A DNA stretch of 63,822 nt, filler included, from Psammoneis japonica (Eukaryota): NCBI GenBank assembly GCA_008632985.1. It is 4 parts of 4 records of this genome, joined end to end, with 100 filler letters (N's around TTAATTAATTAA, not from the genome) between each part and the next. Parts side by side here need not be neighbours in the genome. Positions count along the whole stretch, not along the records: positions 20,163 to 40,169 come from QPGO01000455.1; 3 more parts are not named here. One strand, given 5' to 3'. Of this stretch, positions 20,561 through 57,300 are shown piece after piece. The notes under the pieces are model-generated. The model was not told the origin of the DNA. It searched no databases and was given only the letters and a program-made list of their open reading frames with translations. Numbering within the stretch: position 1 is the first letter of the stretch; each line of letters begins with the position of its first letter. The translations under genes and the position numbers were made by a program.

Positions 20561-23500
20561 AAAGCATGTGTGTGGTTTGTTCATTGCAGCAAAAACAACT
20601 TTTAGAGGCACACGTTTTCACGATGATGTTTTGAGCAAAATGCTTGTGCATGCTGTTGTGCAACATGCAGCCACTGACAAGAGTCAATGTGTCACGGCAA
20701 CGTGTCACAGCCTTTGAATGTCACAAAGGGCGTGACAAAAACAACCTTTTGTCTGCATGCACACTGCGTTGTGAATTCATGGTGGAGTGGTGCATCGCAA
20801 CCACTGGGCAGGAGGCCAGGGGTTCAAAACCCGAGTGGGAGTTGTCTGCAGCAACGTTGGTCACTGTTGAACGCGCAAAACTCTGTGCAGTTCTGTGTGT
20901 TCCTTCGCACGCACCCACACTGTTCCGCCAAAACCGTGCAGTGTCAGCACACGTGAGCGCAGGTCGCATGATGCATGGGGAGGAGTGCAACATGCAGCCA
21001 CCAATGAGAGCCAATGCATCACGGCGACGTGTTGCAGCCTTTAAATGTCACAAAGGGCGTGACAAAAACAACCTTTTGTCTGCATGCATGCTGCAGTTGA
21101 CAGCATGGAAGTGGATTTTGACATTGCAGCAACAGAGAGGTTTGAACTGGAATTTGCATGGATTCGAAATTTTCAAAAGACAACAAGGAATGGCAAAATT
21201 GACAAATCATGCACACATCAAAAGATTTGGCCAATTCTTGATTGTGCTGCAATTGAGAAAAGAGAGTCATTGATGAAAAGCATCAGATTTTTGGTGTTGA
21301 AGAGAGGTTTGGAAATTTCCCAATGGTGAAACAAGCTGGGGAACCAAGGCATGGAGCCACCCACAATTGGCAACAGCGGCACAGGCAATGGCAAGGAAGA
21401 AGAAGCAAGAAAGTGCGGGGGTGGCTGGAGATCAACCAGCCAGCCAAAGGCCAGCAGCGGCATTGGTGCGGGTTGGAGCCACTGGGGATCACCAGTCTGT
21501 GAAGCGAGAGGCAGAAGAGGTGGCGCGGAAGAAACTCTTCCCGAAGGCAAAGTTCCTTGTCAAGGCAGACATGGCAAGCAGCAGCAAAGTGTCACGACTC
21601 ATCAGGAAAAAGATGGCCGGCTGCAATTGCAGCAAGCGAGACTGGGCAGGAGCGTGGGAAGACTGGGCAAAGAAGTGTGTCATGCATGCAATTGATGCAA
21701 AAAGGAGCACGGTCACTCAGGCGATCAAGCACAATGCAGCAGCTGGCAAGTGTTTTGTGGTGCACGGCATGTTGAGTGTGGCTGTGCTTGACACTGCTGC
21801 ACCCACATTTGCTGAAGTCGTGTTGACAGAGAACAAAGCCAAGGGGACACACGGTCAGAAGAAACTGGCAGCGAGAGGCAAAGGAGGGAAGAAGAGCAAG
21901 AAGAGGAAGAGGAACGATCAGATGGCAGATGAAGAGCCATTCCTGGTGACTTGGGAGGAGGAGACAGTGACGACGATTGTGGAGGACAAGTGCGAGAACA
22001 AGGAAGCACACACTTGGTTCCATCAAAGCATGTGTGGGGTTTGTTCATTGCAGCAAAAATGACTTTTAAGCGAAATGCTTGTGCATGCTGTCAACAGCAG
22101 CATGGAAGTGGATTTTGACGTTGCAGTGACAGAGAGGTTTGAACAGGAATTTGCGTGGATTCAAATTTTTCAAAAGATGACAAGGGATGGCAAAATTGAC
22201 AAAATGTGTGCATTGAAAGATTTGGTTGATTCTCAACTGTGCTGCAATTGAGAAAAGAGAATCATTGATGAAAAGCATCAGAGTTTGAGTGTCAAAGAGA
22301 CGATTGTGGAGGACAAGTGCAAGAACAAGGAAGCGCGTGCTTGGTTCTACAATTGCAGCAAGTGAGACTGGGCAGGAGCATGGGAAGACTTGGCAAAGAA
22401 GTGCGTCATGCATGCAATTGACACAAAAAGGAGCACGGTCACTCAGGCGATCAAGAACAATGCAACGGCTGGCAAGTGTTTTGTGGTGCACGGCATGTTG
22501 AGTGTGGTTGTGCTTGACACTGCTGCACCCACATTTGCTGAAGTGGTGTTGACAGAGAACAAAGCCAAGGGGACACACAGTCAGAAGAAACCGGCAGCGA
22601 GAGGCAAAGGAGGGAAGAAGAGCAAGAAGAGGAAGAAGAGTGATCAGACGGCAGATGAAGAGCCGTTCCTGGCAACTTGGGAGGAGGAGACAGTGACGAC
22701 GATTGTGGAGGACAAGCGCAAGAACAAAAAAGTGCACGCTTGGTTCCATCAAAGCATGTGTGGGGTTTGTTCATTGCAGCAAAAATGACTTTTAAGCAAA
22801 ATGCTTGTGCATGCTGTCAACAGCAGCATGGAAGTGGATTTTGACATTGCAGTGACAGAGAGGTTTGAACTGGAATTTGCATGGATTCGAAATTTTCAAA
22901 AGATGACAAGGAATGGGAAAATTGACAAAATGTGTGCATCAAAAGATTTGGCCAATTCTCAACTGTGCTGCAATTGAGAAAAGAGAACCATTGATGAAAA
23001 GTGTCAGATTTTCAGTGAAGAGAGGTTTGAAAATTTCCCAACGGCGAAACAAACTGGGGAACCAAGGCATGGAGCCACCCACAATTGGCAACAGCGGCAC
23101 AGGCAATGGCAAGGAAGAAGAAGCAAGAAAATGAGGGGGTGGCTGGAGATCAACCAACCAGCCAAAGGCTGGCAGTGGCGTTGGTGCGGGTGGGAGCCGT
23201 CGGGGATCACCAGCCCACAAAGAGAGAGGTGGAAGAGGTGGCACGGAAGGAACTCTTCCCAAAGGCAATGTTCCTTGTCAAGGCGGACATGGCAAGCAGC
23301 GGCAAAGTGTCATGGCTCATCAGGAAAAAGACAGCCGGCAGCAATTGCAGCAAGCAAGACTGGGCAGGAGCGTGGGAAGACTGGGCAAAGAAGTGCGTCA
23401 TGCATGCTGCCAATGCGAAAAGGAGCATGGTCACTCAGGCGATCAAGAACAATGCAACAGCTGGCAAGTGTTTTGTGGTGCACGGCATGTTGAGTGTGGC

Positions 23501-33940: not shown

Positions 33941-34336
33941 GACGCGTTCCAGCCCTGGGTGGGAGCTCGCAGTGCTGACGTGTGAAAACAACAGCTTTTG
34001 TCATCCGTCGCATGTTTCGCACGTAGATTTCCACGTGTGACATTTAAAAAAAATTGTCCAGACTCGCTGTTTTGCGAAGCCCCAGACGTTTTACATGACA
34101 AATTTGTGGAAACAACAATGCGCCAGTTGCATTCTTCAATGTCTGAAGAACGCAACTGGCTGAGTAAAAAATGATGCACTTCAATCATGTGCGAGTTTGT
34201 GCGTTCGCAAAATTGCCTCATTTTCTGTTGGCGATCATTGACATTTTAATTGCCGCAAAATTTTGCTGCGGAGCTCGCACGCAGAAGTCTGCGGGCCCAA
34301 TGTCACACAGATTCCCGCCTGCATCTGGAGCGTGTC
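33941..34336. mobile_element. MITE, same family
   Basis: TSD TCCT; empty-site paralogue tggctttcctcatcccccaac at 36311-36331. Confidence 0.88.
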
Positions 34337-34611
34337 TCCTCATCCCCCAACCCACTGCCCCCCTCCTCCACTTTCCTGCCGATGGGCTCCAGCCCTGGGT
34401 GGGACTTTTTGTGACATTTGCCCCGCAGAATTCCATGTGCGAGCTCTGCAGTTTGCACTCTGGTCAATGGACATGTTTGTCTTTGACACAAAACAAATGG
34501 CCAAGTTTGCAGCGCGCGCATCTCTGTTCGCACTCGAAGCTGCAAAGGGTCCAAAATGGCAGAGGGCACAAAACCACAATGGCCAAAAATTGCTGAAGGC
34601 ACAAAATCATG

Positions 34612-35058
34612 TGCAACACACAGCTGCCAACAAGAGCCAATGCACCACGGCGACGTGTTGCAGCCTTCAAATGTCACAAAAGGCATGACAAAAACAACCT
34701 TTTGTCTGCGTGCATGCTGCATTGTGAATTCATGGCGGAGTGGTTCATCGCAACCATTGGGCAGGAGGCCAGGGGTTCGAAACCCTGAGTGGGAGTTGTC
34801 TGCAGCAACGTTGATCACTGTCGAACGCGCAAAACTCTGTGCAGTTCTGCGTGTTCCTTCGCACGCACCCACACTGTTCCGCCAAAACCGTGCAGTGTCA
34901 GCACACGTCAGCAAAGAGCCGCATGGACGCGTGGTGCATGGGGAGGAGTGCAACACACAGCTGCTGATGAGAGCCAATGCATCACGGTGACGTGTTGCAG
35001 CCTTTAAATGTCACAAAGGGCATGACAAAAACAACCTTTTGTCTGCATGCATGCTGCA
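34612..35058 (+). mobile_element. TRIM-like element, copy 2
   Basis: LTRs 34612-34721 and 34949-35058; PPT 34940-34948; TSD CATG. Confidence 0.9.
34733..34784 (+). promoter_or_regulatory. tRNA-type (Pol III type 2) A box and B box inside the TRIM
   Basis: TGGCGGAGTGG (34733-34743) and GGTTCGAAACC (34774-34784), 30 nt apart; identical in copies 3 and 4, one CpG-type change per box in copy 1. Confidence 0.6.
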
Positions 35059-35315
35059 CATGAGGGGCACCAAATGCAGCTGAGGGCCCAAAACCAAAAA
35101 AGGCACAAAATGGACAAGGGCACAAAGCCACAAAGGGCGCAAAATGGCCAAGGGCACAAAACCATGAGATGGGGCAAAGTGCTCAAGGGCACAAAAAAAG
35201 GAAAGGGCACAAAACAGCCAAGGGCAACAAAAGGTCAAGGGCGCAAAATCAAGAATTGCGCAACATGGCTGAGGGCACAAAATCTCAAAGGTGCCCCCAG
35301 CGCCAAACACTTGCA

Positions 35316-35704
35316 GACGGGCTCCAGCCCCAGGTGGGACTTTTTGTGACATTTGCCCCGCAGAGTTCCAAGTGCGAGCTCTGCAGTTCGTGCTCTGGCC
35401 AATGGACATGTTCATCTTCGACATGAAACAAACGGCCAAGTTTGCAGTGCATGTGTCTCTGTTCGCACTCGAAGTTTTGGACAACGCGCCTGCCCTGCGC
35501 CACTCTCAAGACACTCGAGAATGGCGCAGAAAAAAAAAATGTCAAAAGTTGTTGAATGGATCGCCTGACAATTGCACTGTAAAATGATGCAAAATTTTGC
35601 CAAAATCACGTAGAAATGCACGTGCGCGACATGCGACGCGATTCAAAAAACTGTCGATGTCGCAGCTCAGCAGTGCGAGGTCCCACCTGGACCTGGAACG
35701 CGTC
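35316..35704. mobile_element. MITE, same family
   Basis: TSD TGCA; empty-site paralogue gccaaacacttgcaccacaaa at 39386-39406. Confidence 0.88.
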
Positions 35705-40269: not shown

Positions 40270-40666
40270 GTATGTCGCGCACGCACATTTCTACGTGATT
40301 GTGTCGAAATTTTGTGTGATTTTGCAGTGCAATTGTCAGGCCATGCATTGACCAACTTTTGACATTTTTTTCTTCTGCGCCATTCTCGAGTGTCTTGAAA
40401 ATGGCGCAGGGCAGGCATGTTGTCCAAAACTTTGAGCACCTGCATGGACAGATGTGCCACAAACTTGGCCGTTTTTTTCATGTTGAAGACAAATGTGTCC
40501 ATCAACCAGAGTGCGAACTGCAGAGCTTGCAGAATTCCACGGGGCAAATGTCACAAAAAGTCCCACCTGGGGCTGGAACCCGTTGACATGTTTGTTTTCC
40601 TTGAAGCCACATGTTTGTTTGCATGTTTGTTTTCCTTGAAACCACACATTTGTTTCACTTGAAAAC

Positions 40667-41056
40667 GATGGGCTCCAGTCCTGGATGGGACTCTGTGTGA
40701 CATTGGGCCCACAGAATTCTGCGTGCGAGCTCCGCAGTGTGAGAATTTGACCAATGGGTGTGTTTGTCTTCAACATCAAATGAGCTGCCAAGTTTGTTGT
40801 GCAATTGTGCCTCTTGCCACTTGACGTTTTTGCAGGTGCGCCTGCCCTGCGTGACTCTCAAGACATTGTAGAATCGTGTTGCAACAAAAAATGTCAAAAG
40901 TTGTTGGACGGATCGCTCAATGAATGCACCGTAAAATGACAAAAAATGTCAAAAAAATCATGCAGAAATCTACGTGCGCAACATGCGACGTGATTCAAAA
41001 AACTGTCGATGTCACAGTTCAGCAGTGCGAGGTCCCACCTGGACCTGGGGCGCGTC
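40667..41056. mobile_element. MITE, same family (other partial or composite copies at 13213-13327, 17505-17905, 34381-34540, 36361-37763, 40270-40584)
   Basis: Both family termini present (GATGGGCTCCAG...; ...GGTCCCACCTGGACCTGGGGCGCGTC); no TSD recognisable. Confidence 0.75.
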
Positions 41057-41208
41057 TGTCATCATCTCAAGTGGTGAACTGCAGTGTCTTGAGTGCTCAA
41101 CATCCAGTCTTGAGTGGCAGGCGCCATCTTGAGTGGGGCCCCTGGCAAATTTTGTCTCTGTTGGCTCTGTGCTGTCTCGAGCGGCAAACATCCAATGTCC
41201 AATCTAAC

Positions 41209-41862
41209 GTTTTCCTTGAAAACACATGTTTGTTTTCCTTGAAACGACATGTTTGTTGTCCTTGAAAAGACATTTTTTTCCCCCTTGAAATGACATGTTT
41301 GTTTTCCTTGAAATGACATGTTTGTTTTCCTTGAAATGACATGTTTGTTTTCAAGACATGTTTGTTTTCCTTGAAACGACATGTTTGTTTTCATTGAAAA
41401 GACATGTTTGTTTTCCCTGAAAAGACATGTTTGTTTTCCTTGAAACGACGCGATTGTTTTTCTTGAAATGACACATTTGTTTTCCTTGAAAAGACATGTT
41501 TGTTTTCCTTGAAAAGACATGTTTGTTTTCCTTGAAACCACATGTTTGTTTTCTTTGAAATGACACGTTTGTTTTGTTGAAAAGACATGTTTGTTTTCCT
41601 TGAAACGACACGTTTGTTTTCCTTGAAAAGACATGTTTGTTTTCCTTGAAACGAAATGTTTGTTTTCCTTGAAAAGACATGTTTGTTTTCCTTGAAACGA
41701 CACACTTGTTTTCCAGAAAAGACATGGTTGTTTTCATTGAAACCACATGTTTGTTTTCCTTGAAACGCCGCGTTTGTTTTCCTTGAAAAGACATTTTTTT
41801 CCCTTGAAGCGACATGTTTGTTTTCCTTGAAACGACATGTTTGTTTTCAAGACATGTTTGTT
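41209..41862 (-). repeat. 23-bp satellite array (short array also at 40585-40665)
   Basis: Unit GTTTCAAGGAAAACAAACATGTC on the - strand. Confidence 0.95.
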
Positions 41863-41919
41863 TGACCTTGACATTGAAGTCTTCTCTGCAGACAGGCCCA
41901 AGTCCCACTCTGGCACTCA

Positions 41920-42235
41920 ACTCACCTTGCGCGCGCAAAAGCACCCTGATTTTCAAGTCAGGGAAAACAACAGAGTGCGCGCTGTTGGGGTCAAACTGGC
42001 GAGGGGTGTCGTGGACAGTCAGCTCACTTGCTCACAGTTGGCTGGGGCACAGCAGGGTGTCAGTCATTCTTTCCCTGAAAAACACAGCCTTGTGGGCTGG
42101 CAGTGGGCGTGGCTGTCCATTGGCTGGATCAACCCACATGGCAGCAGCCACGCAAATGGGGACATTCCTCATTGGCGCGCACTCTTTGGAGCAAGGATGC
42201 ACTGCAGCAGCGTGGTTGCTGACAACAATTTGTTC
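41920..42235 (-). pseudogene. Diverged Copia protease-region fragment
   Basis: VHPCSKECAPMRNVPICVAAAMWVDPANGQP...TDTLLCPSQL parallels 44180-44460. Confidence 0.75.
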
Positions 42236-42606
42236 AATGTTGTGGAGAAAAATGGAGTGGCTGGCTGTCTCAACACGACCCAAATGACGGCTGCACTGTC
42301 GAACAGCAATGCTCCTCTCATTGTTGCTGGCCTGTTCCAGCTCCAGGTGCTCTGCTTTTCATCACGCGAGAGGCCGATTTTCTGCGCAGTTTGGCGCAAT
42401 TGACTCCTTCAATTTTGATCGTTTCGAAAATCGAAAGGTGAGTGTACACCCGAAAATGCATGCAAAGTGCACACTCACCCTTTGATTTGCCAAAAAACGG
42501 ATTTGGAAAAAGTCAATTGCGCCAAATGCACAAATTTCCAAATGATGGGAATCGAACCCGCGCGGAGCACCTGGAGCTGGAACAGGCCTGCTGTGAAAAG
42601 ATCAAG

Positions 42607-43260
42607 ATGTCGTCTCCAGCACCACCGGCAAAGAAGAGAAAGAAAAATGAGACTGTTGAGCCAATGAGCCTGAGACTTCAGGCAGTGTTGAAGAGAATGG
42701 GCACGCAGGCAGCGCATGGTGCGCTGAAACCAGAAGTGGAGAAGGTGGCTGGAAATGATCTCTTTTCACAGGTGAAGTTTCTCAGTCCATCAGAATTGGC
42801 AAGCAATGGGAGCGTCTCAATGTTTGTCAAGAAACAGATTGCTGGTGGCAACATGGACACTTCAAATTGGTCAGGAACTTGGGAGGAATGGGCAAAAGAG
42901 GCGGCAAAAAGGCAAGTTGACAATCTCAGAAACACGGTGTGTTCGGCTAAGGGGCGGAGGCAATGGCCCGCAAGTTGGGTGACCAATGTGTGTGACTCGA
43001 GAGTTGCGCGCATCTTGCAAGGAGATGACGGTGATGCTTTGTCTGTGCAGGCGTTGTCGCCAAGGAAGAGGGAAAGGAAAAAGAAAAGAAACTCAAGGCG
43101 GCAGTCAAGAGGAAAAAGCAAGGCAGGAAAAAGTCAAGCCGTGACAAGAACGAAAAGAAAGACACCCCGATTGTGCCGACATGGGATCCGCTTGGCCCAG
43201 ACACTGTCGCTGGCAGCAAACGAAGGAACAAGCAGGCATGCAAGTGGTTCTGTGATCACA
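42607..43260 (+). pseudogene. Homologue of the unknown protein at 21367-23960; deleted derivatives at 47400-48078, 54880-55558 (-) and 58798-59475 (-)
   Basis: EVEKVAGNDLFSQVKFL..ELASNGSVS..VKKQIAGGN...WSGTWEEWAK aligns by eye with EAEEVARKKLFPKAKFL..DMASSSKVS..IRKKMAGCN...WAGAWEDWAK. Confidence 0.65.
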
Positions 43261-44055
43261 CCCCTGTTTGCAAAAATTAACAAACCAAGGATTGTGCGGC
43301 AATGCAATCATGGATTGGCACATGGCAACAAGGTGGAGGCAGAAGTGGCGATGTGGGCACAGTGAAATGTGGCGCACATGATTCTCAACAAGTTGTCGCG
43401 ACATTGGCACAGCAAACTTGCAACCAGAGGTTGGCCTGTCATTGTGCGACAACAATTTTTTGCAACATTTTGACAAATTGCCATCATGCAAATCCACACA
43501 TTTTTGACGTTTCGTGCACTCTGATGTGTGTGTTGTGCACAGCATCATCGCACAGCATTTGTCCAACTCTCCCTCTCATCGCAGGATGGGTTGTCGCCAT
43601 GTGGTGCATCTGCACAGCGGACTTGCGAATTTGACCATGCACTCCCTCAGTGCCAGCAGGTTTGGCGACATTTGGTTCTGTGCCTTTCAGTGCTGGCGCA
43701 ACTGTTCATTCCTCATTCTGAGGTTTCTCATGTGCGCTGCATCCAAGCTGGGTGCCTGCATTGGCGGCAGGTTCATCAGGCTCGTCGGAGTCTTTCGGTG
43801 CATCAGCAGGTTGAGCAGCAGGCTCGGCAACAGCCGCTTTCTTTGCAGTGCGAGTTTCGGCATCAACCCACTCAGCTTCCAAGGACACAGCAGCAGCTTT
43901 GCATTTCTTTTTGGCCTTCTTGGCGTCGCGGAGCTTTTGGACTTGCTCTCACTCGGGACCATCAAGAGCACTCCGGTCGGAGATGCCCTTCAGAAAGTCA
44001 GAGACCTTCTTGGTCTCGGCCACCTGTTTGTTTGTCTGGGTGATTCTCAAAGGAT

Positions 44056-45549
44056 GTGCGTGTCTCTTTGTCATCTGCTGGAAATTCAGATGATGAAGCC
44101 ACCACTGATTTAGACTCGCACGCTGACACGTGTGCTGTTGGGTCCAATTTTGTGATGTGCTCTGACATCGACAGAACTGTCGTGGTGCACCCCCACTCCA
44201 AAGAGCACGCGCCAATGGAAAACACTCCTGTTTGCGCGGCTGCTGCCGTGTGGGTTGATCCAACTGATGGACAACCGTGCTTGCTGCCAGTCCACGAGGC
44301 CATGTTTTTTGGGGACAAGATGACCAACACCCTTCTGTGCCCCAACCAACTGCAAGCAAATGGGCTGATTGTCCACGACACCCCTTGCCAGTTTGACCCG
44401 ACTGGCGTGCACTCCATTGCTTTCCCTGACTTGAAGATCAGGGTGCCACTGCGAACAAGAGGCGTTGCTTCTGTCTTTGATTCACACGAGCCAACAAATG
44501 AGGATCTGGAGAACCTCCCCCGGCTGGAACTCACATCACCCCCGAGATGGGAGCCTTCTGCTGATGCCATGGCGCAAAAGGAGGAAGCGCGCGCATGTGC
44601 CAGTGTGCGCCAAGGATCAGCAAAGTCGGGCGGATGGTCGACGACAATGAATGTGACCAGGTGTGTTGCTTCCATTCACTCACACCAAATGTCCTGTCAT
44701 GACGAGAGCATCATTGTGGACACTGATGATGACAATTCATTGCATCGCCGCATGGTTGCTCAGGCGAATGTCTCCCACAACGACACTGAGGGAGACGGGC
44801 CACACGACCGGCATGACCTGGATGTCCACCTGGATTGTGCCGAGCGGAAACGGGTGCATGCACTGTCGACCTTGAGTCGCGCATCAACTGTCACACCCGA
44901 GACACTCTCTAAAAGGTGGAACATTGGCCTGACGGCTGCTGAGAACACCATCAGAGTGATGACCCAGGCAGGGGTCCGCAATGTCTGCACACCATCCGAA
45001 CGGAAAGTCCGGAAGAAAGCCCCTTGGCTCAAGTTCCCTGCTGTCAAGGGACGACTCTGCTCCGACCAGATGTTTTCAAAGGTCAAATCAACACATGGCA
45101 AGATGGGAGGAAGCGCACTTGCCAACGGAAGAGGGTGTGACAGGTTCCATCCTTGGAAGAGGAAACAGGACCACCCAGATGCCGTCATGTCATTTGTGCA
45201 TGACGTTGGCACACCGCAGGTCCTTGTGTCGGATGGCGCGCCGGAAATGGCGGAAGGCCAGACCAAGGAGATCTGCAAGGAATGCAGGATGCACCAGGAG
45301 GTGTCCACTCCATGCAGCCCCTGGCAGAACCTGGCCGAGGCATCCATTCGTGAGTTGAAGAAAAGAGTCCGTGTGACTCTGCGCTGGACTGGCGCTCACA
45401 GACGACTTTGGTCCCACAGCGCCAAATGGACATGTGACATCCGACGCATGATTGCAGCCAGTGTGTCAGACATGGGAGGACGAGTCCCAGAAGAGGAGGT
45501 GACAGGTTCAACACCCGACATCTCTTCCCTCTCTCTCTTTGATTGGTGA
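44056..45549 (+). pseudogene. Ty1/copia (diatom CoDi-like) pol fragment: protease and integrase
   Basis: DLDSHADTCAVGSN, LLCPNQL, TPETLSKRWNIGL, VHDVGTPQVLVSDGAPE, PCSPWQNLAEASIRELKK, TPDIS; 497 aa with no Tyr. Confidence 0.9.
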
Positions 45550-45809
45550 AAACAAACATGTCTTTTCAAGGAAAACAAACATGTCATTTCAAGGGGAAAA
45601 AATGTCTTTTCAAGGAAAACAAACATGTCGTTTCAAGGAAAACAAACACGTGTTTTCAAGGAAAACAAACATGTCTTTTCAATGAAAACAAACATGTCAT
45701 TTCAAGGAAAACAAACATGTCATTTCAAAGAAAACAAACACGTTGTTTCAGGGAAAACAAGCGTGTCATTTCAAGGAAAACAAACGTGTCTTTTCAAGGA
45801 AAACAAACA
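45547..45809 (+). repeat. 23-bp satellite array
   Basis: Same unit; abuts and truncates the Copia ORF. Confidence 0.95.
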
Positions 45810-46403
45810 CCCCACCTCAAACCAAGCAAAAGCAGGCATGGAGCAGCGCCGCCAAAACTTGCAGACAGGCTCAAGTCCCGCTCTGGCACTCAGCTCTCAG
45901 CTTGTGCTCCGCACAAAACCCTCAGACAATGCTTGGCTCCAACTGGCACCCAGAGGACTCAGTTGAAGAAACTCTGACACAAGAGCAACAGCTCTTTTCC
46001 TTTGATCTTGTTGACATGATCATGTGGAACCATGGAGATGCTGCCGTGCACGCCATCTCTCCTTGATGACCTGTGTTCTCCCTGGCTGGACCTTTCTCAC
46101 CAAACCGTTGCTCGCCGCTGAACAGAGAGCAGCGCGGTCACATTGTCAAATGTGGGCGCAGCTGAAACACAAATTGGCTCATCTTGTGTGGCCGCAAGGC
46201 TTGAGACCAAAAAAAAACCAAACCCCAATTTTAAGTGCCATTGCACCTTTGCCCAGCAACACCGGCGCCGGCCAACCCACACTTCCAGTGCACCCTGCGG
46301 AGGATGCGGCAGAAATGTGGTGCAGTTGGCCGGTTTTGGCGCCCCCATCAGAGGGCGCCCGGCGGAGACAGCTGCAAATGGCATGAGTGCCGCTTTTTGC
46401 CAG

Positions 46404-46668
46404 TCATTTGGCTTCTTTCAGGCTGTCTTTTAGTCTTGGACGGACCACAGAGATCCAGCTTTGGATCCTCGTTGTTGAAAATGACAGTTGTTCTTCGACC
46501 GAATCCAGCAATGCGCCTCTGTCCTTCGCCAAGCATTCTTGTCGTTTGTTGCATGTCGCCGTCAGCTTGGCTTCCGCCTTCCTCTGTTGAGATGATTTCC
46601 AAGAATCAACATCGTGCCCATGAACCAACTTGCTGTGCTCTTCCCAAAGTTCCCACCAGCACCTCTGC
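46404..46668 (-). pseudogene. Possible non-LTR retrotransposon ORF2 C-terminal fragment
   Basis: WQRCWWELWEEHSKLVHG resembles the W..LW..RN..VHG motif at LINE ORF2 ends; short match only. Confidence 0.35.
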
Positions 46669-49600
46669 CATGTTTGTTTTCCTTGAAACGACATGTTTGT
46701 TTTCACTGAAAAGACATGTTTGATTTCCTTGAAACGACATGTTTGTTTTCCTTGAAACCACATGTTTGTTTTCCTTGAAAAGACACGTTTGTTTTCCTTC
46801 AAACAACATGTTTGTTTTCCTTGAAATGGCGTGTTTGTTTTCCTTGAAAACACACAATTGTTTTCCTTGAAACAACATGATTGTTTTCCTTGAAATGGCA
46901 TGTTTGTTTTCTTTGAAACGACGTGTTTGTTTTCCTTGAAACGACATGTTTGTTTTCCTTGAAAAGACATGTTTGTTTTCTTTGAAACCACATGTTTGTT
47001 TTCCTTGAAACCACATGTTTGTTTTCCTTAAAATGACACGTTTGTTTTCCTTGAAACGACATGTTTGTTTTCATTTGTTTTCCTTGAATTGACATTTTTT
47101 TTGAAATGACACATTTGTCTTTCTTAAAACAACATGAGTTTGCCTTGAATTCTGCGCAAGAACGCACTGACGGAAGCAAACCAACATGATTCCATGTGCA
47201 GGAGAACAGCATCTGCACCCCACAAGAAGCTCACGCCTGTCCCCAAGTTCAGTTGGATCCACGAGACTGCAATGTGCAGCAATTTGTGGGGTTGATCCTC
47301 TCCCAGATGAAAGTGTGTGACACCTCTGGAATGCTTGAGCAGCACCCGCAATTGAGCAACTCCTCATTTGGTGTCTGGCAGTCAAAACCTGCCACCGCCA
47401 ATCCAGCACCACCGGCAAAGAAGAGAAAGAAAAATGAGACTGTTGAGCCACAAGAAGATGACGGTGATGCTTTGTCTGTGCAGGCGTTGTCGCCAAGGAA
47501 GAGGGAAAGGGAAAAAAAAAGAAACTCAAGGCGACAGTCAAGAGGAAAAAGCAAGGCAGGAAAAAGTCAAGCCGTGACAAGAACGAAAAGAAAGACGTCC
47601 CGATTGTGCCGACATGGGATCTGCTTGGCCCAGACACTGTCGCTGGCAGCAAACGAAGGAACAAGCAGGCACGCAAGTGGTTCTGTGATCACACCCCTGT
47701 TTGCAAAAATTGACAAACCAAGGATTGCACGGCAATGCAATCATGGATTGGCACATGGCAACAAGGTGGAGGCAGAAATGGCAATGTGGGCACAGTGAAA
47801 AATGGCGCACATGATTCTCAACAAGTTGTCGCGACATTGGCACAGCAAACTTGCAGCCAGAGGTTGGCCTGTCATTGTGCGACAACAATTTTTTGCAACA
47901 TTTTGACAAATTGCCATCATGCAAATCCACACATTTTTAACGTTTCGTGCACTCTGATGCCTGTGTTGTGCACAGCATCATCGCACAGCATTTGTCCAAC
48001 TCTCCCTCTCATCGCAGGATGGGTTGTCACCATGTGGTGCATCTGCACAGCGGACTTGCGAATTTGACCATGCACTCCCTCTGTCAGGCAGGATGGGTTG
48101 GTGCCATGTTTGTTTTCCTTGAAAAGACATGCTTGTTTCCTTAAAATGACACGCTTGTTTTCCCTGAAACGACATGTCTGTTTTCCTTGAAACCACATGT
48201 TTGTTTTCCTTGAAAACACATGTTTGTTTTCCTTGAAACGACATGTTTGTTTTCCTTGAAAAGACATGTTTGTGTTCAAGACATGCCTGTTTTCCTTGAA
48301 ACGACATGTTTGTTTTCACTGAAAAGACACGCTTGTTTTCCCTGAAAAGACATGTTTGTTTTCTTTGAAACGAAATGTTTGTTTTCCTTGAAAAGACATG
48401 TTTGTTTTCTTTGAAACCACATGTTTGTTTTCCTTGAAACGACATGTTTGTTTTCATTGAAAAGACATGTTTGATTTCCTTGAAAAGACATGTTTGTTTT
48501 CCTTGAAACCACATGTTTGTTTTCCTTAAAATGACACATTTGTTTTCCTTAAAACGACATGTTTGTTTTCATTAAAAAGACATGTTTGTTTCTTTGAAAC
48601 AAAATGTTTGTTTTCTTTGAAACGAAATGTTTGTTTTCCTTGAAAAGACATGTTTGTTTTCATTGAAACGACATGTTTGTTTTCATTGAAAAGACATGTT
48701 TGATTTCCTTGAAACGACATGTTTGTTTTCCTTGAAATGACGTGTTTATTTTCCTTGAAAAGACATGTTTGTTTTCATTGAAAAGACATGTTTGATTTCC
48801 TTGAAATGACATGTTTGTTTTCCTTGAAACCACGTGTTTGTTTTCCTTGAAAACACACATTTGTTTTCCTTGAAACAACATGTTTGTTTTCCTTGAAACC
48901 ACATGTTTGTTTTCCTTGAAATGACGCGTTTGTTTTCCTTGAAACAACATGTTTGTTTTCCTTGAAAAGACATGTTTGTTTTTCTTGAAATGACACGTTT
49001 GTTTTCTCTGAAAAGACATGTTTGTTTTCCTTGAAACAACATGTTTGTTTTCCTTGAAAAGACATGTTTGTTTTCCTCAAAAGACATGTTTGTTTTCCTT
49101 GAAATGACACGTTTGTTTTCCTTGAAACCACACGTTTGTTTTTCTTGAAATGACACCTTGGTTTTCTCTGAAAAGATGTGTTTGTTTTCCTTGAAACGAC
49201 ACGTTTGTTTTCCTTGAAAAGATGTGTTTGTTTTCTTTGAAACAACGTGTTTGTCTTTAAACGACATGTTTGTTTTCCCTGAAACGACACGTTTGTTTTC
49301 CTTGAAAAGACACGTTTGTTTTCCTTGAAAAGACATGTTTGTTTTCTTTGAAACGACACATTGTTTTTCTTGAAACGACATGTTTGTTTTCTCTGAAACC
49401 ACGTGTTTGTTTTCCCTGAAACAACACATTTGTTTTCCTTGAAAAGACATGTTTGTTTTCCTTGAAACGACACGTTTGTTTTCCTTGAAACGACACGTTT
49501 GTTTTCCTTGAAAAGACACGTTTGTTTTCCTTGAAAAGACATGTTTGTTTTCTTTGAAAAGACATGCTTGTTTTCCATGAAACGACGTGTTTGCTTTCCT

Positions 49601-49783
49601 GGAAACCACATGTTTATTTTCCTTGAAACACACATTTGTTTTCCTTGAAACAACACGTTTGTTTTCCTTGAAAAGACATGTTTGTTTTCCTTGAAACCAT
49701 GTGTTTGTTTTCCTTGAAACCGCGCGTTTGTTTCCTTGAAATGGCACGTTTGTTTTCCTTGAAAAGACATGTTTGTTTTCTTT
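46669..49783 (-). repeat. 23-bp satellite arrays 46669-47135 and 48105-49783
   Basis: Same unit; separated by a ~1-kb non-satellite block. Confidence 0.95.
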
Positions 49784-49785
49784 GA

Positions 49786-51392
49786 CTTCAAATCCTTGAG
49801 AGGAACCCATGATGCAGTCCCATCCTTCTGTTCGACTCGCAGGTCCCAGCCTGCAGTCGTCCTCCCAGGAGCGCGCCTGCCAGTCTTGGTCGTTGTGCAC
49901 CCGTCATTGGCCGTTGCAGCACGGTGCAATGTGCAGCTGCCAATGAGAGTTGATGCATCACGGCAACGTGCTGCAATTTGAATGTCACAAAGGTCGTGAC
50001 AAAAACAACCTTTTGTCTGCACGCATGCTGCATCATGAATTTTTGGCGGAGTGGCTCATCGCAACCATTGGGCAGGAGGCCAGGGGTTCGAAACCCTGAG
50101 CGGGAGTTGTCCGCAGCAACGTTGATCACTGTCGAACGCGCAAAACTCTGTGCAGTTCTGTGTGTTCCTTCGCACGCACCCACACTGTTCCACCAAAACT
50201 GTGCAGTGTCAGTGCACGTCAGCCAAGTGCCGCATGGACGCGCGACACATGGGGAGGAGTGCAGTGCGCAGCTGCTGACAAGAGCCAATGCATCACGGCG
50301 ACGTGCTGCAATTTAAATGCCACAAAGGTTGTGACAAAAACAACCTTTTGTCTGCATGCACACTGCAACGGGCATTGCGTCAGTGGCCAACTGTTTCCTT
50401 CATGATCTGGCGGGCATTCCCTTCAGAGTCGATCTGAGTGAATGGGTTGTCTGCAATTGTGTCAGCAGCATGGGAGTCGGTGGATCCGTCAGGGAATTCC
50501 ACGTCGCATGTCCTCAAGTTGTTTCCAGTGCCAACAGGAACCCCGTCACCATCTCACTTGTGTGCAATGACCCCAGCATGAGTCAGCTTGCCTCCTCGTG
50601 GTGACATGACTTGAGCTGCGAGACATTCATCCAGCCCTTCCAGGGTGTGCTCATCAGCTTCCGGTTTGGAAGCATCGGGTTCCACAGGTTCAACGGCATC
50701 ATCCCATTCATCCATGAAGTCGTCAGGGAGTTCAGGGAAGTCAGCGCTGGCATCCTTTTCCGGGATGCTGAGCCGTTTGATCAAAGCTTGGTCGACCGAT
50801 GCAAGATCCGTCTGGATCACCGGAGTTTTAAGGTCATCCTCTGGCATGGCCCACACATCCTTCCGAATGATGGGTTTGCCTGATTCGGGCAAAACAATGA
50901 ATGCCATTTCGTCAATGCAGTTGTCAGCTGTGCCAAGCCAACGGCCAACGCACTTTTTTTCGTGTGGGAACTCCGCCACAGGCACGCAGCAATGCACAGG
51001 TTGACGCCAATCAAAGAGAGAGAGGGAAGAGATGTCGGGTGTTGAACCTGTCACCTCTTCTGGGACTCGTCCTCCCATGTCTGACACACTGGCTGCAATC
51101 ATGCGTCGGATGTCACATGTCCATTTGGCGCTGTGGGACCAAAGTCGTCTGTGAGCGCCAGTCCGGCGCAGAGTCACACGGACTCTTTTCTTCAACTCAC
51201 AAATGGATGCCTCGGCCAGGTTCTGCCAGGGGCTGCATGGGGTGGACACCTCCTGGTGCATCCTGCATTCCCTGCAGATCTCCTTGGTCTGGCCTTCCAC
51301 CATTTCTGGCACGCCATCCGACACAAGGACATGCGGTGCGCCAACGTCATGCACAAATGACATGACGGCATCTGGGTGGTCCTGTTTCCTCT
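49786..51392 (-). pseudogene. Copia pol fragment (integrase C-terminal half and downstream region), interrupted by the TRIM; partial duplicates at 53316-53671 (-) and 56424-57085 (+)
   Basis: Near-identical to 45150-45545, continuing FPHEKKCVGRWLG...FPDGSTD..A.TIADN..QIDSEG...RTTAGWDLRVEQKDGTASWVPLKDLK. Confidence 0.88.
49925..50367 (+). mobile_element. TRIM-like element, copy 3, inserted in Copia pol
   Basis: TSD ACGG (49921-49924, 50368-50371); same LTR-core-PPT-LTR structure; removal restores the Copia frame RNAR|AATANDG. Confidence 0.9.
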
Positions 51393-54300
51393 TCCAAGGA
51401 AAAAAACATGTTGTTTCAAGGAAAACAAACGCGTCATTTTAAGGAAAACAAACATGTGGTTTCAAGGAAAACAAACATGTGGTTTCAAGAAAAACAAACA
51501 TGTCGTTTCAAGGAAAACAAACATGTCGTTTCAAGGAAATCAAACATGTCTTTTCAATGAAAACAAACATGTTGTTTCAAGGAAAACAATCATGTTGTTT
51601 CAAGGAAATCAAACATGTCTTTTCAGTTGAAACAAACATGTCGTTTCAAGGAAAACAAACATGTGGTTTCAAAGAAAACAAACATGTCTTTTCAAGGAAA
51701 ACAAACGTGTCTTTTCAAGGAAAACAAACATGTCGTTTCAAGGAAAACAAACGCGTCATTTCAAAGAAAACAAACATGTGGTTTCAAGGAAAACAAACAT
51801 GTTGTTTCAAGGAAAACAAATGTGTGTTTTCAAGGAAAACAAACACGTGGTTTCAAGGAAAACAAACATGTCATTTCAAGGAAATCAAACATGTCTTTTC
51901 AAGGAAAACAAACACGTCGTTTCAAGGAAAACAAACATGTCATTTCAAGGAAATCAAACATGTCTTTTCAATGAAAACAAACATGTCGTTTCAATGAAAA
52001 CAAACATGTCGTTTCAAAGAAAACAAACATGTCTTTTCAAGGAAAACAAACATTTCGTTTCAAAGAAAACAAACATGTCTTTTTAATGAAAACAAACATG
52101 TCGTTTCAAGGAAAACAAATGTGTCATTTTAAGGAAAACAAACATGTGGTTTCAAGGAAAACAAACATGTCGTTTCAAGGAAAACAAACACGCCATTTCA
52201 GAGAAAACAAATGTGTTGTTTCAAGGAAAAGAAATGTGTCTTTTCAAGGAAAACAAACATGTCGTTTCAAGGAAAACAAACATGTTGTTTCAAGGAAAAC
52301 AAGTGTGTCTTTTCAAGGAAAACAAACATGTTGTTTCAAGGAAAACAAACATGTCGTTTCAAGGAAATCAAACATGTCTTTTCAATGAAAACAAACATGT
52401 CGTTTCAAGGAAAATAAACACGTCGTTTCAAAGAAAACAAACATGCCAAGGAAAACAAACATGCCATTTCAAGGAAAACAAACATGTTGTTTCAAGGAAA
52501 ACAAATGTGTCTTTTCAAGGAAAACAAACATGTTGTTTCAAGGAAAACAAACATGTCGTTTCAAGGAAATCAAACATGTCTTTTCAATGAAAACAAACAT
52601 GTCATTTCAAGGAAAATAAAGACGTCGTTTCAAAGAAAACAAACATGCCATTTCAAGGAAAACAATCATGTTGTTTCAAGGAAAACAAATGTGTGTTTTC
52701 AAGGAAAACAAACGTGTGGTTTCCAGGAAAGCAAACATGTTGTTTCATGGAAAACAAGCATGTCTTTTCAAAGAAAACAAACATGTCTTTTCAAGGAAAA
52801 CAAACGTGTCTTTTCAAGGAAAACAAACATGTCGTTTCAAGGAAAACAAACGTGTCGTTTCAAGGAAAACAAACATGTCTTTTCAAGGAAAACAAATGTG
52901 TTGTTTCAGGGAAAACAAACACGTGGTTTCAGAGAAAACAAACATGTCTTTTCAAGGAAAACAAACATGTCGTTTCAAGAAAAACAAACGTGTCATTTCA
53001 AAGAAAACAAACATGTCTTTTCAAGGAAAACAAACGTGTCTTTTCAAGGAAAACAAACGTGTCGTTTCAGGGAAAACAAACATGTTGTTTAAAGACAAAC
53101 ACGTTGTTTCAAAGAAAACAAACACATCTTTTCAAGGAAAACAAACGTGTCGTTTCAAGGAAAACAAACACATCTTTTCAGAGAAAACCAAGGTGTCATT
53201 TCAAGAAAAACAAACGTGTGGTTTCAAGGAAAACAAACGTGTCATTTCAAGGAAAACAAACATGTCTTTTTGAGGAAAACAAACATGTCTTTTCAAGGAA
53301 AACAAACATGTCGTTGTGTTGAACCTGTCACCTCTTCTGGGACTCGTCCTCCCATGTCTGACACACTGGCTGCAATCATGCGTCTGATGTCACATGTCCA
53401 TTTGGCGCCATGGGACCAAAGTCGTCTGTGAGCGCCAGTCCGGCGCAGAGTCACACGGACTCTTTTCTTCAACTCACAAATGGATGCCTCGGCCAGGTTC
53501 TGCCAGGGGCTGCATGGGGTGGACACCTCCTGGTGCATCCTGCATTCCCTGCAGATCTCCTTGGTCTGGCCTTCCACCATTTCTGGCGCGCCATCCGACA
53601 CAAGGACCTGCGGTGCGCCAACGTCATGCACAAATGACATGACGGCATCTGGGTGGTCCTGTTTCCTCTTCCAAGGAAAAAAACATGTTGTTTCAAGGAA
53701 AACAAACGCGTCATTTTAAGGAAAACAAACATGTGGTTTCAAGGAAAACAAACATGTGGTTTCAAGAAAAACAAACATGTCGTTTCAAGGAAAACAAACA
53801 TGTCGTTTCAAGGAAATCAAACATGTCTTTTCAATGAAAACAAACATGTTGTTTCAAGGAAAACAATCATGTTGTTTCAAGGAAATCAAACATGTCTTTT
53901 CAGTTGAAACAAACATGTCGTTTCAAGGAAAACAAACATGTGGTTTCAAAGAAAACAAACCTGTCTTTTCAAGGAAAACAAGCGTGTCTTTTCAAGGAAA
54001 ACAAACATGTTGTTTCAAGGAAAACAAACGTGTCATTTCAAGGAAAACAAACATGTGGTTTCAAGGAAAACAAACATGTTGTTTCAAGGAAAACAAATGT
54101 GTGTTTTCAAGGAAAACAAACACATGGTTTCAAGGAAAACAAACATGTCATTTCAAGGAAATCAAACATGTCTTTTCAATGAAAACAAACATGTCTTTTC
54201 AAGGAAAATAAACACGTCATTTCAAGGAAAACAAACATGTCGTTTCAAGGAAATCAAACATGTCTTTTCAATGAAAACAAACATGTCGTTTCAATGAAAA

Positions 54301-57300
54301 CAAACATGTCTTTTCAAGGAAAACAAACATTTCGTTTCAAAGAAAACAAACATTTTGTTTCAAAGAAAACAAACATGTCTTTTTAATGAAAACAAACATG
54401 TCGTTTTAAGGAAAACAAATGTGTCATTTTAAGGAAAACAAACATGTGGTTCAAGGAAAACAAACATGTCGTTTCAAGGAAATCAAACATGTCTTTTCAA
54501 TGAAAACAAACATGTCGTTTCAAGGAAAACAAACATGTGGTTTCAAAGAAAACAAACATGTCTTTTCAAGGAAAACAAACATTTCGTTTCAAAGAAAACA
54601 AACATGTCTTTTCAGGGAAAACAAGCGTGTCTTTTCAGTGAAAACAAACATGTCGTTTCAAGGAAAACAGGCATGTCTTGAACACAAACATGTCTTTTCA
54701 AGGAAAACAAACATGTCGTTTCAAGGAAAACAAACATGTGTTTTCAAGGAAAACAAACATGTGGTTTCAAGGAAAACAGACATGTCGTTTCAGGGAAAAC
54801 AAGCGTGTCATTTTAAGGAAAACAAGCATGTCTTTTCAAGGAAAACAAACATGGCACCAACCCATCCTGCCTGACAGAGGGAGTGCATGGTCAAATTCGC
54901 AAGTCCGCTGTGCAGATGCACCACATGGTGACAACCCATCCTGCGATGAGAGGGAGAGTTGGACAAATGCTGTGCGATGATGCTGTGCACAACACAGGCA
55001 TCAGAGTGCACGAAACGTTAAAAATGTGTGGATTTGCATGATGGCAATTTGTCAAAATGTTGCAAAAAATTGTTGTCGCACAATGACAGGCCAACCTCTG
55101 GCTGCAAGTTTGCTGTGCCAATGTCGCGACAACTTGTTGAGAATCATGTGCGCCATTTTTCACTGTGCCCACATTGCCATTTCTGCCTCCACCTTGTTGC
55201 CATGTGCCAATCCATGATTGCATTGCCGTGCAATCCTTGGTTTGTCAATTTTTGCAAACAGGGGTGTGATCACAGAACCACTTGCGTGCCTGCTTGTTCC
55301 TTCGTTTGCTGCCAGCGACAGTGTCTGGGCCAAGCAGATCCCATGTCGGCACAATCGGGACGTCTTTCTTTTCGTTCTTGTCACGGCTTGACTTTTTCCT
55401 GCCTTGCTTTTTCCTCTTGACTGTCGCCTTGAGTTTCTTTTTTTTTCCCTTTCCCTCTTCCTTGGCAACAACGCCTGCACAGACAAAGCATCACCGTCAT
55501 CTTCTTGTGGCTCAACAGTCTCATTTTTCTTTCTCTTCTTTGCCGGTGGTGCTGGATTGGCGGTGGCAGGTTTTGACTGCCAGACACCAAATGAGGAGTT
55601 GCTCAATTGCGGGTGCTGCTCAAGCATTCCAGAGGTGTCACACACTTTCATCTGGGAGAGGATCAACCCCACAAATTGCTGCACATTGCAGTCTCGTGGA
55701 TCCAACTGAACTTGGGGACAGGCATGAGCTTCTTGTGGGGTGCAGATGCTGTTCTCCTGCACATGGAATCATGTTGGTTTGCTTCCGTCAGTGCGTTCTT
55801 GCGCAGAATTCAAGGCAAACTCATGTTGTTTTAAGAAAGACAAACGTGTCATTTCAAAAAAAATGTCAATTCAAGGAAAACAAATGAAAACAAACATGTT
55901 GTTTCAAGGAAAACAAATGTGTCTTTTCAAGGAAAACAAACATGTTGTTTCAAGGAAAACAAACATGTCGTTTCAAGGAAATCAAACATGTCTTTTCAAT
56001 GAAAACAAACATGTCATTTCAAGGAAAACAAAGACGTCGTTTCAAAGAAAACAAACATGCCATTTCAAGGAAAACAATCATGTTGTTTCAAGGAAAACAA
56101 ATGTGTGTTTTCAAGGAAAACAAACATGTCGTTTCAAGGAAAACAAACGCGCCATTTCAAGGAAAACAAACATGTTGTTTCAAGGAAAACAAATGTGTCT
56201 TTTCAAGGAAAACAAACATGTGGTTTCAAGGAAAACAAACATGTTGTTTCAAGGAAATCAAACATGTCTTTTCGGTGAAAACAAACATGTTGTTTCAAGG
56301 AAAACAAACATGGCAGAGGTGCTGGTGGGAACTTTGGGAAGAGCACAGCAAGTTGGTTCATGGGCACGATGTTGATTCTTGGAAATTGTCTCAACAGAGG
56401 AAGGCGGAAGCCAAGCTGACGGCCCCATTCACTCAGATCGACTCTGAAGGGAATGCCCGCCAGATCATGAAGGAAACAGTTGGCCACTGACGCAATGCCC
56501 GTTGCAGTGTGCATGCAGACAAAAGGTTGTTTTTGTCACAACCTTTGTGGCATTTAAATTGCAGCACGTCGCCGTGATGCATTGGCTCTTGTCAGCAGCT
56601 GCGCACTGCACTCATCCCCATGTGTCGCGCGTCCATGCGGCACTTGGCTGACGTGCACTGACACTGCACAGTTTTGGTGGAACAGTGTGGGTGCGTGCGA
56701 AGGAACACACAGAACTGCACAGAGTTTTGCACGTTCGACAGTGATCAACGTTGCTGCGGACAACTCCCGCTCAGGGTTTCGAACCCCTGGCCTCCTGCCC
56801 AATGGTTGCGATGAGCCACTCCGCCAAAAATTCATGATGCAGCATGCGTGCAGACAAAAGGTTGTTTTTGTCACGACCTTTGTGACATTCAAATTGCAGC
56901 ACGTTGCCGTGATGCATCAACTCTCATTGGCAGCTGCACATTGCACCGTGCTGCAACGGCCAATGACGGGTGCACAACGACCAAGACTGGCAGGCGCGCT
57001 CCTGGGAGGACGACTGCAGGCTGGGACCTGCGAGTCGAACAGAAGGATGGGACTGCATCATGGGTTCCTCTCAAGGATTTGAAGTCAAAGAAAACAAACA
57101 TGTCTTTTCAAGGAAAACAAACGTGCCATTTCAAGGAAAACAAACGCGCGGTTTCAAGGAAAACAAACACATGGTTTCAAGGAAAACAAACATGTCTTTT
57201 CAAGGAAAACAAACGTGTTGTTTCAAGGAAAACAAATGTGTGTTTTCAAGGAAAATAAACATGTGGTTTCCAGGAAAGCAAACACGTCGTTTCATGGAAA

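Follow-up and report, generated by a model that had tools for sequence, protein, structure and literature searches.

The window analysed here, a stretch of 63,822 nt from Psammoneis japonica, consists of four contigs joined by N-linkers (1-20062, 20163-40169, 40270-60185 and 60286-63822). Its second contig carries a short LTR element of 447 bp at 34612-35058 (coordinates exact), referred to as copy c2, with the following features:

34608..34611, + strand: 5′ TSD CATG; the empty-site joint runs 34607->35059, with 4 letters common to both sides
34612..34721, + strand: 5′ LTR, 110 nt, TG..CA, with a TATA-like site TTCAAA (34666-34671) and a T4 run (34700-34703)
34722..34732, + strand: spacer, 11 nt, where the PBS is expected to begin; lacks TGG; 4/11 columns variable between copies
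34722..34948, + strand: internal region, 227 nt, without recognisable coding or Rfam family
34733..34743, + strand: A-box-like motif TGGCGGAGTGG, a consensus match whose first two letters alternate TG/CA among copies
34735..34751, + strand: D-arm-like hairpin GCGG (34735-38) / TCGC (34748-51) with a 9-nt loop, seen by eye and absent from MFE folds
34770..34787, + strand: T-arm-like hairpin CAGGG (34770-74) / CCCTG (34783-87) with an 8-nt loop, enclosing the B box
34774..34784, + strand: B-box-like motif GGTTCGAAACC, a consensus match
34940..34948, + strand: PPT GGGGAGGAG, adjoining the 3′ LTR, invariant in c1-c3 and with one change in c4
34949..35058, + strand: 3′ LTR, 110 nt, with TTTAAA at 35003-35008 (the sole TpA left in the element) and a T4 run (35037-35040)
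35059..35062, + strand: 3′ TSD CATG

Four copies from three insertions

The LTRs of c2 are identical at 101/110 positions (9 differing columns) and both have TG..CA ends. A preliminary description of this DNA had proposed a TRIM of ~440 bp with TG..CA LTRs of ~110 bp and an abutting PPT, and this structure is confirmed at 34612-35058. Using BLAST, we searched the window with the element and found four full-length copies, c2 and three others:

20659..21095, + strand: copy c1, 437 nt, TSD GTTG, with a broken A box (TGGTGG) and the B box GGTTCAAAACC
49925..50367, + strand: copy c3, 443 nt, TSD ACGG
56503..56945, - strand: copy c4, the same insertion as c3, on the other arm of an inverted duplication

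Short direct TG..CA LTRs likewise bound c1 and c3. The same search detected neither a solo LTR nor an LTR-free core in the window, and all four cores sit between LTRs. Copy c4 differs from c3 at 2 columns and has both flanks in common with it. Since c4 shares these flanks and lies in a duplication arm, the copies represent three independent insertions on two of the four contigs. The preliminary description had counted the same three insertions (GTTG, CATG and ACGG; two contigs), which the TSDs and the BLAST copies bear out.

The inverted duplication on the third contig, which carries c3 and c4, is large and nearly perfect (46550-50446 versus 54812-58739, arms 97-100% complementary). It may be a genuine palindrome or a chimera that arose in assembly or amplification. 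It holds AT-rich tandem repeats with a period of ~23 nt, which give low-complexity matches to an antifreeze beta-roll Pfam model. The host site of c2 (34359-34607 and 35059-35474) is itself a repeat, with a 181-nt unit that recurs 935 nt apart at 84% identity, and a GGGCACAAAA-type array with a 17-nt period lies downstream of c2.

Coding capacity

As the window has hardly any TAA or TAG, the element is crossed by stop-free frames of 148-235 aa. None of the frames that run through the copies matched a Pfam family. The preliminary description had reported no ORF; this holds in the sense of recognisable coding, but not literally, given the stop-free frames. With lengths of 437-447 bp and no coding, the copies have the size and coding content of TRIMs. 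Among 210 stop-to-stop frames of at least 110 aa in the window, no Pfam match to RT, integrase, protease or gag was obtained, and the autonomous partner therefore does not lie within the window. The sole Pfam matches of these frames were of low complexity, to the antifreeze beta-roll model at 41-58 kb.

Mobility and abundance in public sequencing runs

Contigs of four public sequencing runs were aligned on 34300-35400 at a likeness of at least 80%. One X1 contig joins 34607 to 35059 and skips 451 nt (447 + 4), with 4 letters that fit either side. This joint is an unoccupied target site with a single CATG and constitutes independent proof of the c2 insertion. Altogether, 2,174 X1 contigs matched 34300-35400. 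Their summed word depth, which is not a copy number, was ~1,250-1,440 in the two flank bins directly left of the element, 62,000-114,000 over the core and 139,000-307,000 over the 3′ LTR. The TRIM family is clearly very abundant in the X1 organism. No RNA run was among the public runs listed as carrying the sequence. X1 contigs around c2 also show tandem joints that go back 925, and the empty-site version has a depth of ~1,050.

From X5, a marine sediment metagenome of a different study, one 254-nt contig matched 34608-34835 with 16 other letters; it carries a 10-nt deletion at 34771, in the B-box region. The conserved core pattern gave 0 matches in metagenome, viral and prokaryote-genome collections, and an invariant LTR stretch gave 0 matches among metagenome and viral contigs.

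TpA loss after insertion

TpA occurs only 275 times in the 63.8 kb of the window (obs/exp 0.06), while CpA, TpG and CpG have obs/exp values of 1.64, 1.66 and 0.51, respectively. The depletion extends over 1-62000, which covers contigs 1-3 completely and contig 4 as far as its middle. As a consequence, the stops TAA and TAG hardly occur, and long spurious ORFs are abundant. Surviving TpA are mostly found in TTAA (71/205), and each element copy retains exactly one, in the TTTAAA of its 3′ LTR.

We compared the LTR pairs of c1 (20659-20768/20986-21095), c2 (34612-34721/34949-35058) and c3 (49925-50032/50260-50367). Between 5′ and 3′ LTRs, 39 columns differ: 11 TG-versus-CA doubles (22 columns), 3 TA-versus-edited, 8 CpG transitions and 6 others. 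The two LTRs of a pair were identical at insertion and now oppose TG to CA; therefore, the editing acted after insertion and on both strands. The pairs thus form a clean natural clock, in which most of the change since insertion is TpA-to-CpA/TpG editing, and the LTR divergence of 8% therefore overstates the age of the copies. At LTR positions ~17-18 and 20-21, both TpA-derived, the two LTRs carry opposite products in all three copies (6/6). Between copies, the 5′ LTRs vary at 33/110 columns and the 3′ LTRs at 22/110.

A sequencing artefact is an unlikely cause of the TpA loss. Adjacent sites mix CA and TG within one copy, some products are common to both LTRs, and CA at 34733-34 was read in runs of two different studies.

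A tRNA-like module next to the 5′ LTR

Using TRGCNNAGTGG as A-box and GGTTCRANNCC as B-box consensus, we located an A box 11 nt past the 5′ LTR and a B box 30 nt further on, both on the sense strand. The A-box pattern was observed 5 times in the window versus 0.90 expected, with 3/5 in element copies, and the B-box pattern 7 times versus 1.29 expected, with 4/7 in element copies. All matches of the copies fall into the internal region and none into an LTR. A further B-box match at 42548 (-) was set aside as it lacks a tRNA-like context. The ordered arrangement A box-N25-45-B box occurs three times in the window (c2, c3 and c4) versus 0 times in 2000 dinucleotide shuffles. Sense A and B boxes with GCGG/TCGC and CAGGG/CCCTG stems after the 5′ LTR, as claimed in the preliminary description, are thus all present and exceed what shuffles yield by chance. 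Since the motifs, their order, their spacing and the two stems together exceed chance, the segment following the 5′ LTR is very probably derived from a tRNA or a tRNA-SINE.

Could the tRNA-box likeness be a coincidence in an ordinary TRIM core? Very many windows were scanned for the original observation, so rare motif pairs will appear; furthermore, no tRNA model or detector reports the module, and it forms no cloverleaf. However, not even one A-N25-45-B pair arose in any of the 2000 shuffles of 63.8 kb, the D- and T-like stems lie around the motifs where a tRNA would have them, and all motifs lie on the sense strand in the right order. We therefore regard a coincidence as highly improbable.

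The module is nevertheless no intact tRNA gene. The preliminary description had proposed a search for a tRNA in the core, and none was detected: ARAGORN predicted 0 tRNAs in the window, Rfam returned 0 families at gathering score in the whole window, and the Rfam tRNA model gave no match even at E<=10, whether 551 nt or only 97 nt were searched. At E<=10, only weak chance matches to miRNA, CRISPR-repeat and lncRNA models were obtained. The MFE folds of the module are not cloverleaves, differ among c1, c2 and c3, and do not exceed shuffles in stability (z -0.10 to -0.65). We rejected the identity as a tRNA gene on the ARAGORN, Rfam and folding results. By eye, the module has neither an acceptor stem nor an anticodon stem, and an anticodon arm with a variable loop would need ~4 nt more than the D-like and T-like arms leave between them.

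Conservation of the boxes above the rest of the core, on which the preliminary description had made its reading depend, is not demonstrable. In three independent copies, and thus at low power, 2/22 columns of the A and B boxes vary versus 35/196 elsewhere in the internal region (Fisher p=0.38), which corresponds to a raw variability of 9% versus 18%. For the whole module, the same three copies vary at 6/57 columns versus 27/150 downstream (p=0.21). In c1, the A box TGGTGG fails TRGC and the B box GGTTCAAAACC is a CpG-decay form that fits a looser R form, while the B box is intact in c2, c3 and c4. Among the variants listed (40 of 80), position 34733 reads T>C in 43055/45585 of the X1 depth and 34734 reads G>A in 43639/45585. 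In ~94% of the X1 depth, and hence in the majority of family members, the A box consequently starts with CA instead of TG and loses its T. The TG/CA alternation at these first A-box letters is evidently the footprint of an ancestral TpA.

The primer-binding site

During reverse transcription, both LTRs acquire any sequence that separates U5 from the primer, which means that the PBS has to begin no more than ~2 nt from the LTR end. The spacer that occupies this place (34722-34732) is the most variable part of the internal region. TGG is absent within 11 nt of the 5′ LTR and first occurs in the A box itself, where the TG alternates with CA in other copies and evidently is the signature of an edited TpA, not a conserved TGG. 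We found no acceptable CCA-type PBS after the 5′ LTR, and to judge from the sequence the minus-strand primer site is probably not a standard CCA-end tRNA site. A normal PBS in antisense orientation, or read-through into a primer tRNA, was rejected by eye: the reverse complement has no CCA end in register and its T-loop is non-canonical.

Self-priming LTR elements of the Tf1 type have a transcript whose 5′ end pairs with the PBS. When the LTR was paired with the first 20 post-LTR nt, the duplexes were no better than those of shuffles (0.12-0.84), which leaves Tf1-type self-priming unsupported. Likewise, the module shows no complementarity to the spacer, and priming by an RNA derived from the module is unsupported as well. 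The suggestion of the preliminary description that the element encodes a tRNA-like RNA for its own priming finds no support in either result.

Priming or packaging might still involve the module in another way, either through an unusual internal-tRNA (anticodon-loop) PBS or as a tRNA mimic for uptake into the particle of a partner element. This would fit its start 11 nt past the LTR, exactly at the PBS position, where a CCA-type PBS is absent. In addition, 34723-24 alternates TG/CA between copies, and an ancestral TpA there would yield a short stretch able to pair with a CAU-anticodon loop; anticodon-loop PBSs are documented in fungal Helenus and Copia in the part of Kojima 2024 (PMC10886601) considered here. 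However, that same part knows truncated-tRNA priming only from Copia lineages with 5-bp TSDs (PMC10886601), and the TSDs of the P. japonica copies have 4 bp. The spacer is, with 4/11 variable columns, the least conserved part of the core, the LTR/post-LTR duplexes remain at shuffle level, and the module has no stable tRNA-like fold. Moreover, the tRNA-like parts of Helenus are described as not complementary to their PBSs (Kojima 2024, PMC10886601, as far as that part extends). Taken together, we consider a role of the module in priming or packaging very unlikely.

A putative Pol III transcript and the replicative RNA

At type-2 promoters, transcription starts some 10-20 nt upstream of the A box, and the B box is the main determinant for TFIIIC. 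T4 runs occur in the element only at LTR positions 89-92, i.e. at 34700 and 35037. A Pol III start, if used, would fall in the spacer or a few nt before it, at the end of the 5′ LTR. The putative Pol III RNA would thus start after the T-run of the 5′ LTR and stop ~20 nt before the element end, with a length of ~320 nt. Given that the boxes lie outside the LTR and given the positions of the T4 runs, such an RNA lacks terminal redundancy. Without terminal redundancy it is incapable of the strand transfers that rebuild two LTRs, and hence it is not the replicative RNA, which would have to begin and terminate within the LTRs. A TATA-like TTTAAA is found at LTR positions 55-60 (35003-35008 in the 3′ LTR), with the T-run region ~30 nt further downstream.

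The A and B boxes could nonetheless be a working type-2 promoter that binds TFIIIC and yields this ~320-nt RNA, from the LTR/core border to the T-run of the 3′ LTR. Rather than a replicative template, the RNA might be a decoy, a small-RNA precursor, a chromatin boundary, or without function. Both boxes match the consensus exactly in c2, c3 and c4 at a tRNA-like spacing, the first T4 run downstream lies at 35037, and the ancestral TpA at 34733-34 would still match TRGC. Furthermore, related TRIMs use small-RNA promoters, as shown for Cassandra and inferred for Helenus and Ajax according to the part of PMC10886601 drawn on here. On the other hand, the T is lost in the ~94% of X1 depth that has CA at the first two A-box letters, the A box of c1 is broken, the X5 copy lacks part of the B box, and the boxes are not conserved above the rest of the core. 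An RNA without terminal redundancy also means that selection on the element could not act through it. A working promoter is therefore unlikely in our view.

A probable tRNA-derived fossil in a putatively trans-mobilised element

We consider it probable that the family is a high-copy, trans-mobilised, non-autonomous TRIM that carries a decayed tRNA- or SINE-derived fossil in its internal region. Most likely, the template for its copies is an RNA with both ends inside the LTRs, which contain the TATA-like TTTAAA, and an autonomous LTR element most likely supplies, in trans, the enzymes for its reverse transcription and integration. We infer both the RNA start and the mobilisation in trans from the known biology of the TRIM family. 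Plus-strand synthesis would be primed at the PPT, and the target duplications of 4 bp would be the work of the integrase. Of this scheme, the sequences directly show the PPT, the LTR ends, the TSDs and the empty site. The first ~60 nt of the internal region would be the remnant of a decayed tRNA gene or tRNA-derived SINE, captured in sense orientation, which keeps the D-arm, the T-arm and the A and B boxes but has presumably lost the acceptor and anticodon arms. The element probably just carries this remnant along; from its place outside the LTR, the remnant cannot promote the replicative RNA. After insertion, the copies would have been hit by the same TpA-to-CpA/TpG hypermutation that stripped the window of TpA.

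Several observations count against this reading. The B box is intact in c2, c3 and c4 and matches a looser R form in c1, and the raw variability of the boxes is lower than that of their surroundings (9% vs 18%). An acceptable PBS was not found, the first TGG being an editing product 11 nt from the LTR. In addition, the module sits exactly at the PBS position, which random capture does not predict.

The preliminary description had spoken of a SINE-LTR chimera that may be transcribed by Pol III or encode a tRNA-like RNA. A TRIM with a very probably tRNA-derived segment remains from this proposal, while its functional part is unsupported.

Relation to known elements

The closest comparison is offered by Helenus, for which we draw on part of Kojima 2024 (PMC10886601). 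As described there, Helenus elements are TRIMs 311-1263 bp in length whose LTRs contain A and B boxes of tRNA origin; they occur in fungi, in six animal phyla and in Selaginella. Most cannot encode a tRNA. They possess a PBS and a PPT, and their TSDs measure 4 bp in the animal families but 5 bp in those of fungi and the plant; 4-bp TSDs associate with Gypsy-mobilised animal families. Similarity between internal portions, of the kind expected with an autonomous partner, is reported for LTR-1_PTrit and Copia-9_PGr. Anticodon-loop priming is given for Copia, Ty5 and most fungal Helenus. Helenus is grouped with Cassandra and Ajax as TRIMp3, with a SINE insertion into an LTR as proposed origin. In Cassandra, the LTR contains the Pol III start as well as the stop, and the RNA has an 18-nt terminal duplication (all PMC10886601).

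The P. japonica element resembles Helenus, in so far as that part describes it, as a short non-coding LTR element of high copy number with tRNA-derived A/B boxes, a PPT and an unlikely working tRNA. Its 4-bp TSD is that of the animal families, and its 447 bp fall within 311-1263 bp. Against the Helenus motifs (A = TRGCY..YGG, B = GGTTC; PMC10886601), both boxes are present in c2, c3 and c4, whereas the A box of c1 is broken and the X1 majority has CA at the first two A-box letters. However, the tRNA piece of Helenus is contained in both LTRs, while that of the P. japonica TRIM is single and internal and follows the 5′ LTR directly. With start and stop of Pol III within the LTRs, Helenus can yield a terminally redundant RNA, which the box and T4 positions of the 447-bp TRIM do not allow. 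Finally, Helenus has an identifiable PBS in that description, and we identified none in the 447-bp TRIM. We rejected membership in Helenus on the internal position of the tRNA piece, outside the LTRs, and the lack of a Pol III start and stop within the LTRs. The preliminary description would have been refuted by a match to an already described element; this kind of element is indeed in print as Helenus (PMC10886601, in the part considered), but with the tRNA piece in the LTRs and not internal.

With Cassandra, again as portrayed in that part of the paper, the element shares the nature of a TRIM with a small-RNA-gene fragment that bears an internal Pol III promoter. In Cassandra, the fragment derives from 5S rRNA, lies in the LTR and gives an 18-nt terminal duplication, whereas it is tRNA-like and internal in the 447-bp TRIM, where no such duplication is possible. 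Canonical TRIMs of the Katydid type have the same ~110-bp TG..CA LTRs, tiny interior, PPT, short TSD, absence of genes and trans-mobilisation, but carry a PBS for a tRNA 3′ end a few nt from the LTR in place of a sense tRNA-like piece. SINE2 elements, in turn, share the decayed tRNA head, the A and B boxes and the lack of a cloverleaf; in contrast to them, the 447-bp TRIM has LTR ends, a fixed 4-bp TSD and a PPT, and lacks a LINE-type tail or A-rich end. An identity as SINE2 was rejected because all four cores in the window are LTR-flanked and the TSD is fixed at 4 bp.

By its sequence, the 447-bp element is thus most aptly called a TRIM whose interior holds a tRNA/SINE-derived module; it stands beside Helenus as a variant and does not belong to it. 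Literature searches returned no TRIM described with a tRNA-like piece in its interior. The element could represent a new small-RNA-derived TRIM architecture, possibly the first outside fungi, animals and plants, in which a sense tRNA-derived module replaces or overlaps the PBS, in a host whose repeats have almost all their TpA edited. The module would then serve either as a tRNA mimic in priming or packaging, exploiting the tRNA selection of the partner, or as a TFIIIC/Pol III site. We think this quite unlikely. Should the module indeed act in priming, packaging or Pol III recruitment, it would amount to a new way to parasitise a partner element. If it is only a fossil, the element is one more TRIM family, yet it shows that tRNA/SINE pieces enter TRIM cores besides LTRs.

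Hypermutation in a wider context

A process that resembles the TpA loss in P. japonica was recently described in Bigelowiella natans, where TpA-to-CpA/TpG hypermutation affects viral and TE-like regions and an ADAT2-like deaminase has been proposed (Mettrop et al. 2026, 10.64898/2026.01.13.699255). In the part of this preprint on which we rely, the process likewise acts only from TpA to CpA/TpG, is concentrated in foreign or repeat DNA and leaves TpA-poor tracts rich in CpA and TpG. The extent differs: Rho of an NCLDV region is 0.45 there, whereas the P. japonica window, with an obs/exp of 0.06 over ~62 kb, is depleted far more deeply. The editing of LTR pairs links this hypermutation process, described only in the 2026 preprint as far as the part used here goes, to retrotransposons at near-saturation.

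In the last stretch of the window (62001-63822), TpA is about half-normal (61 vs ~119 expected), with a sharp boundary between edited and little-edited DNA. This stretch contains a plausible coding frame at 63039-63821 (+), which is open at the contig end and has no Pfam match. Using 63108-63821 of this frame as query, we found three homologues, the best of them with 52% identity.
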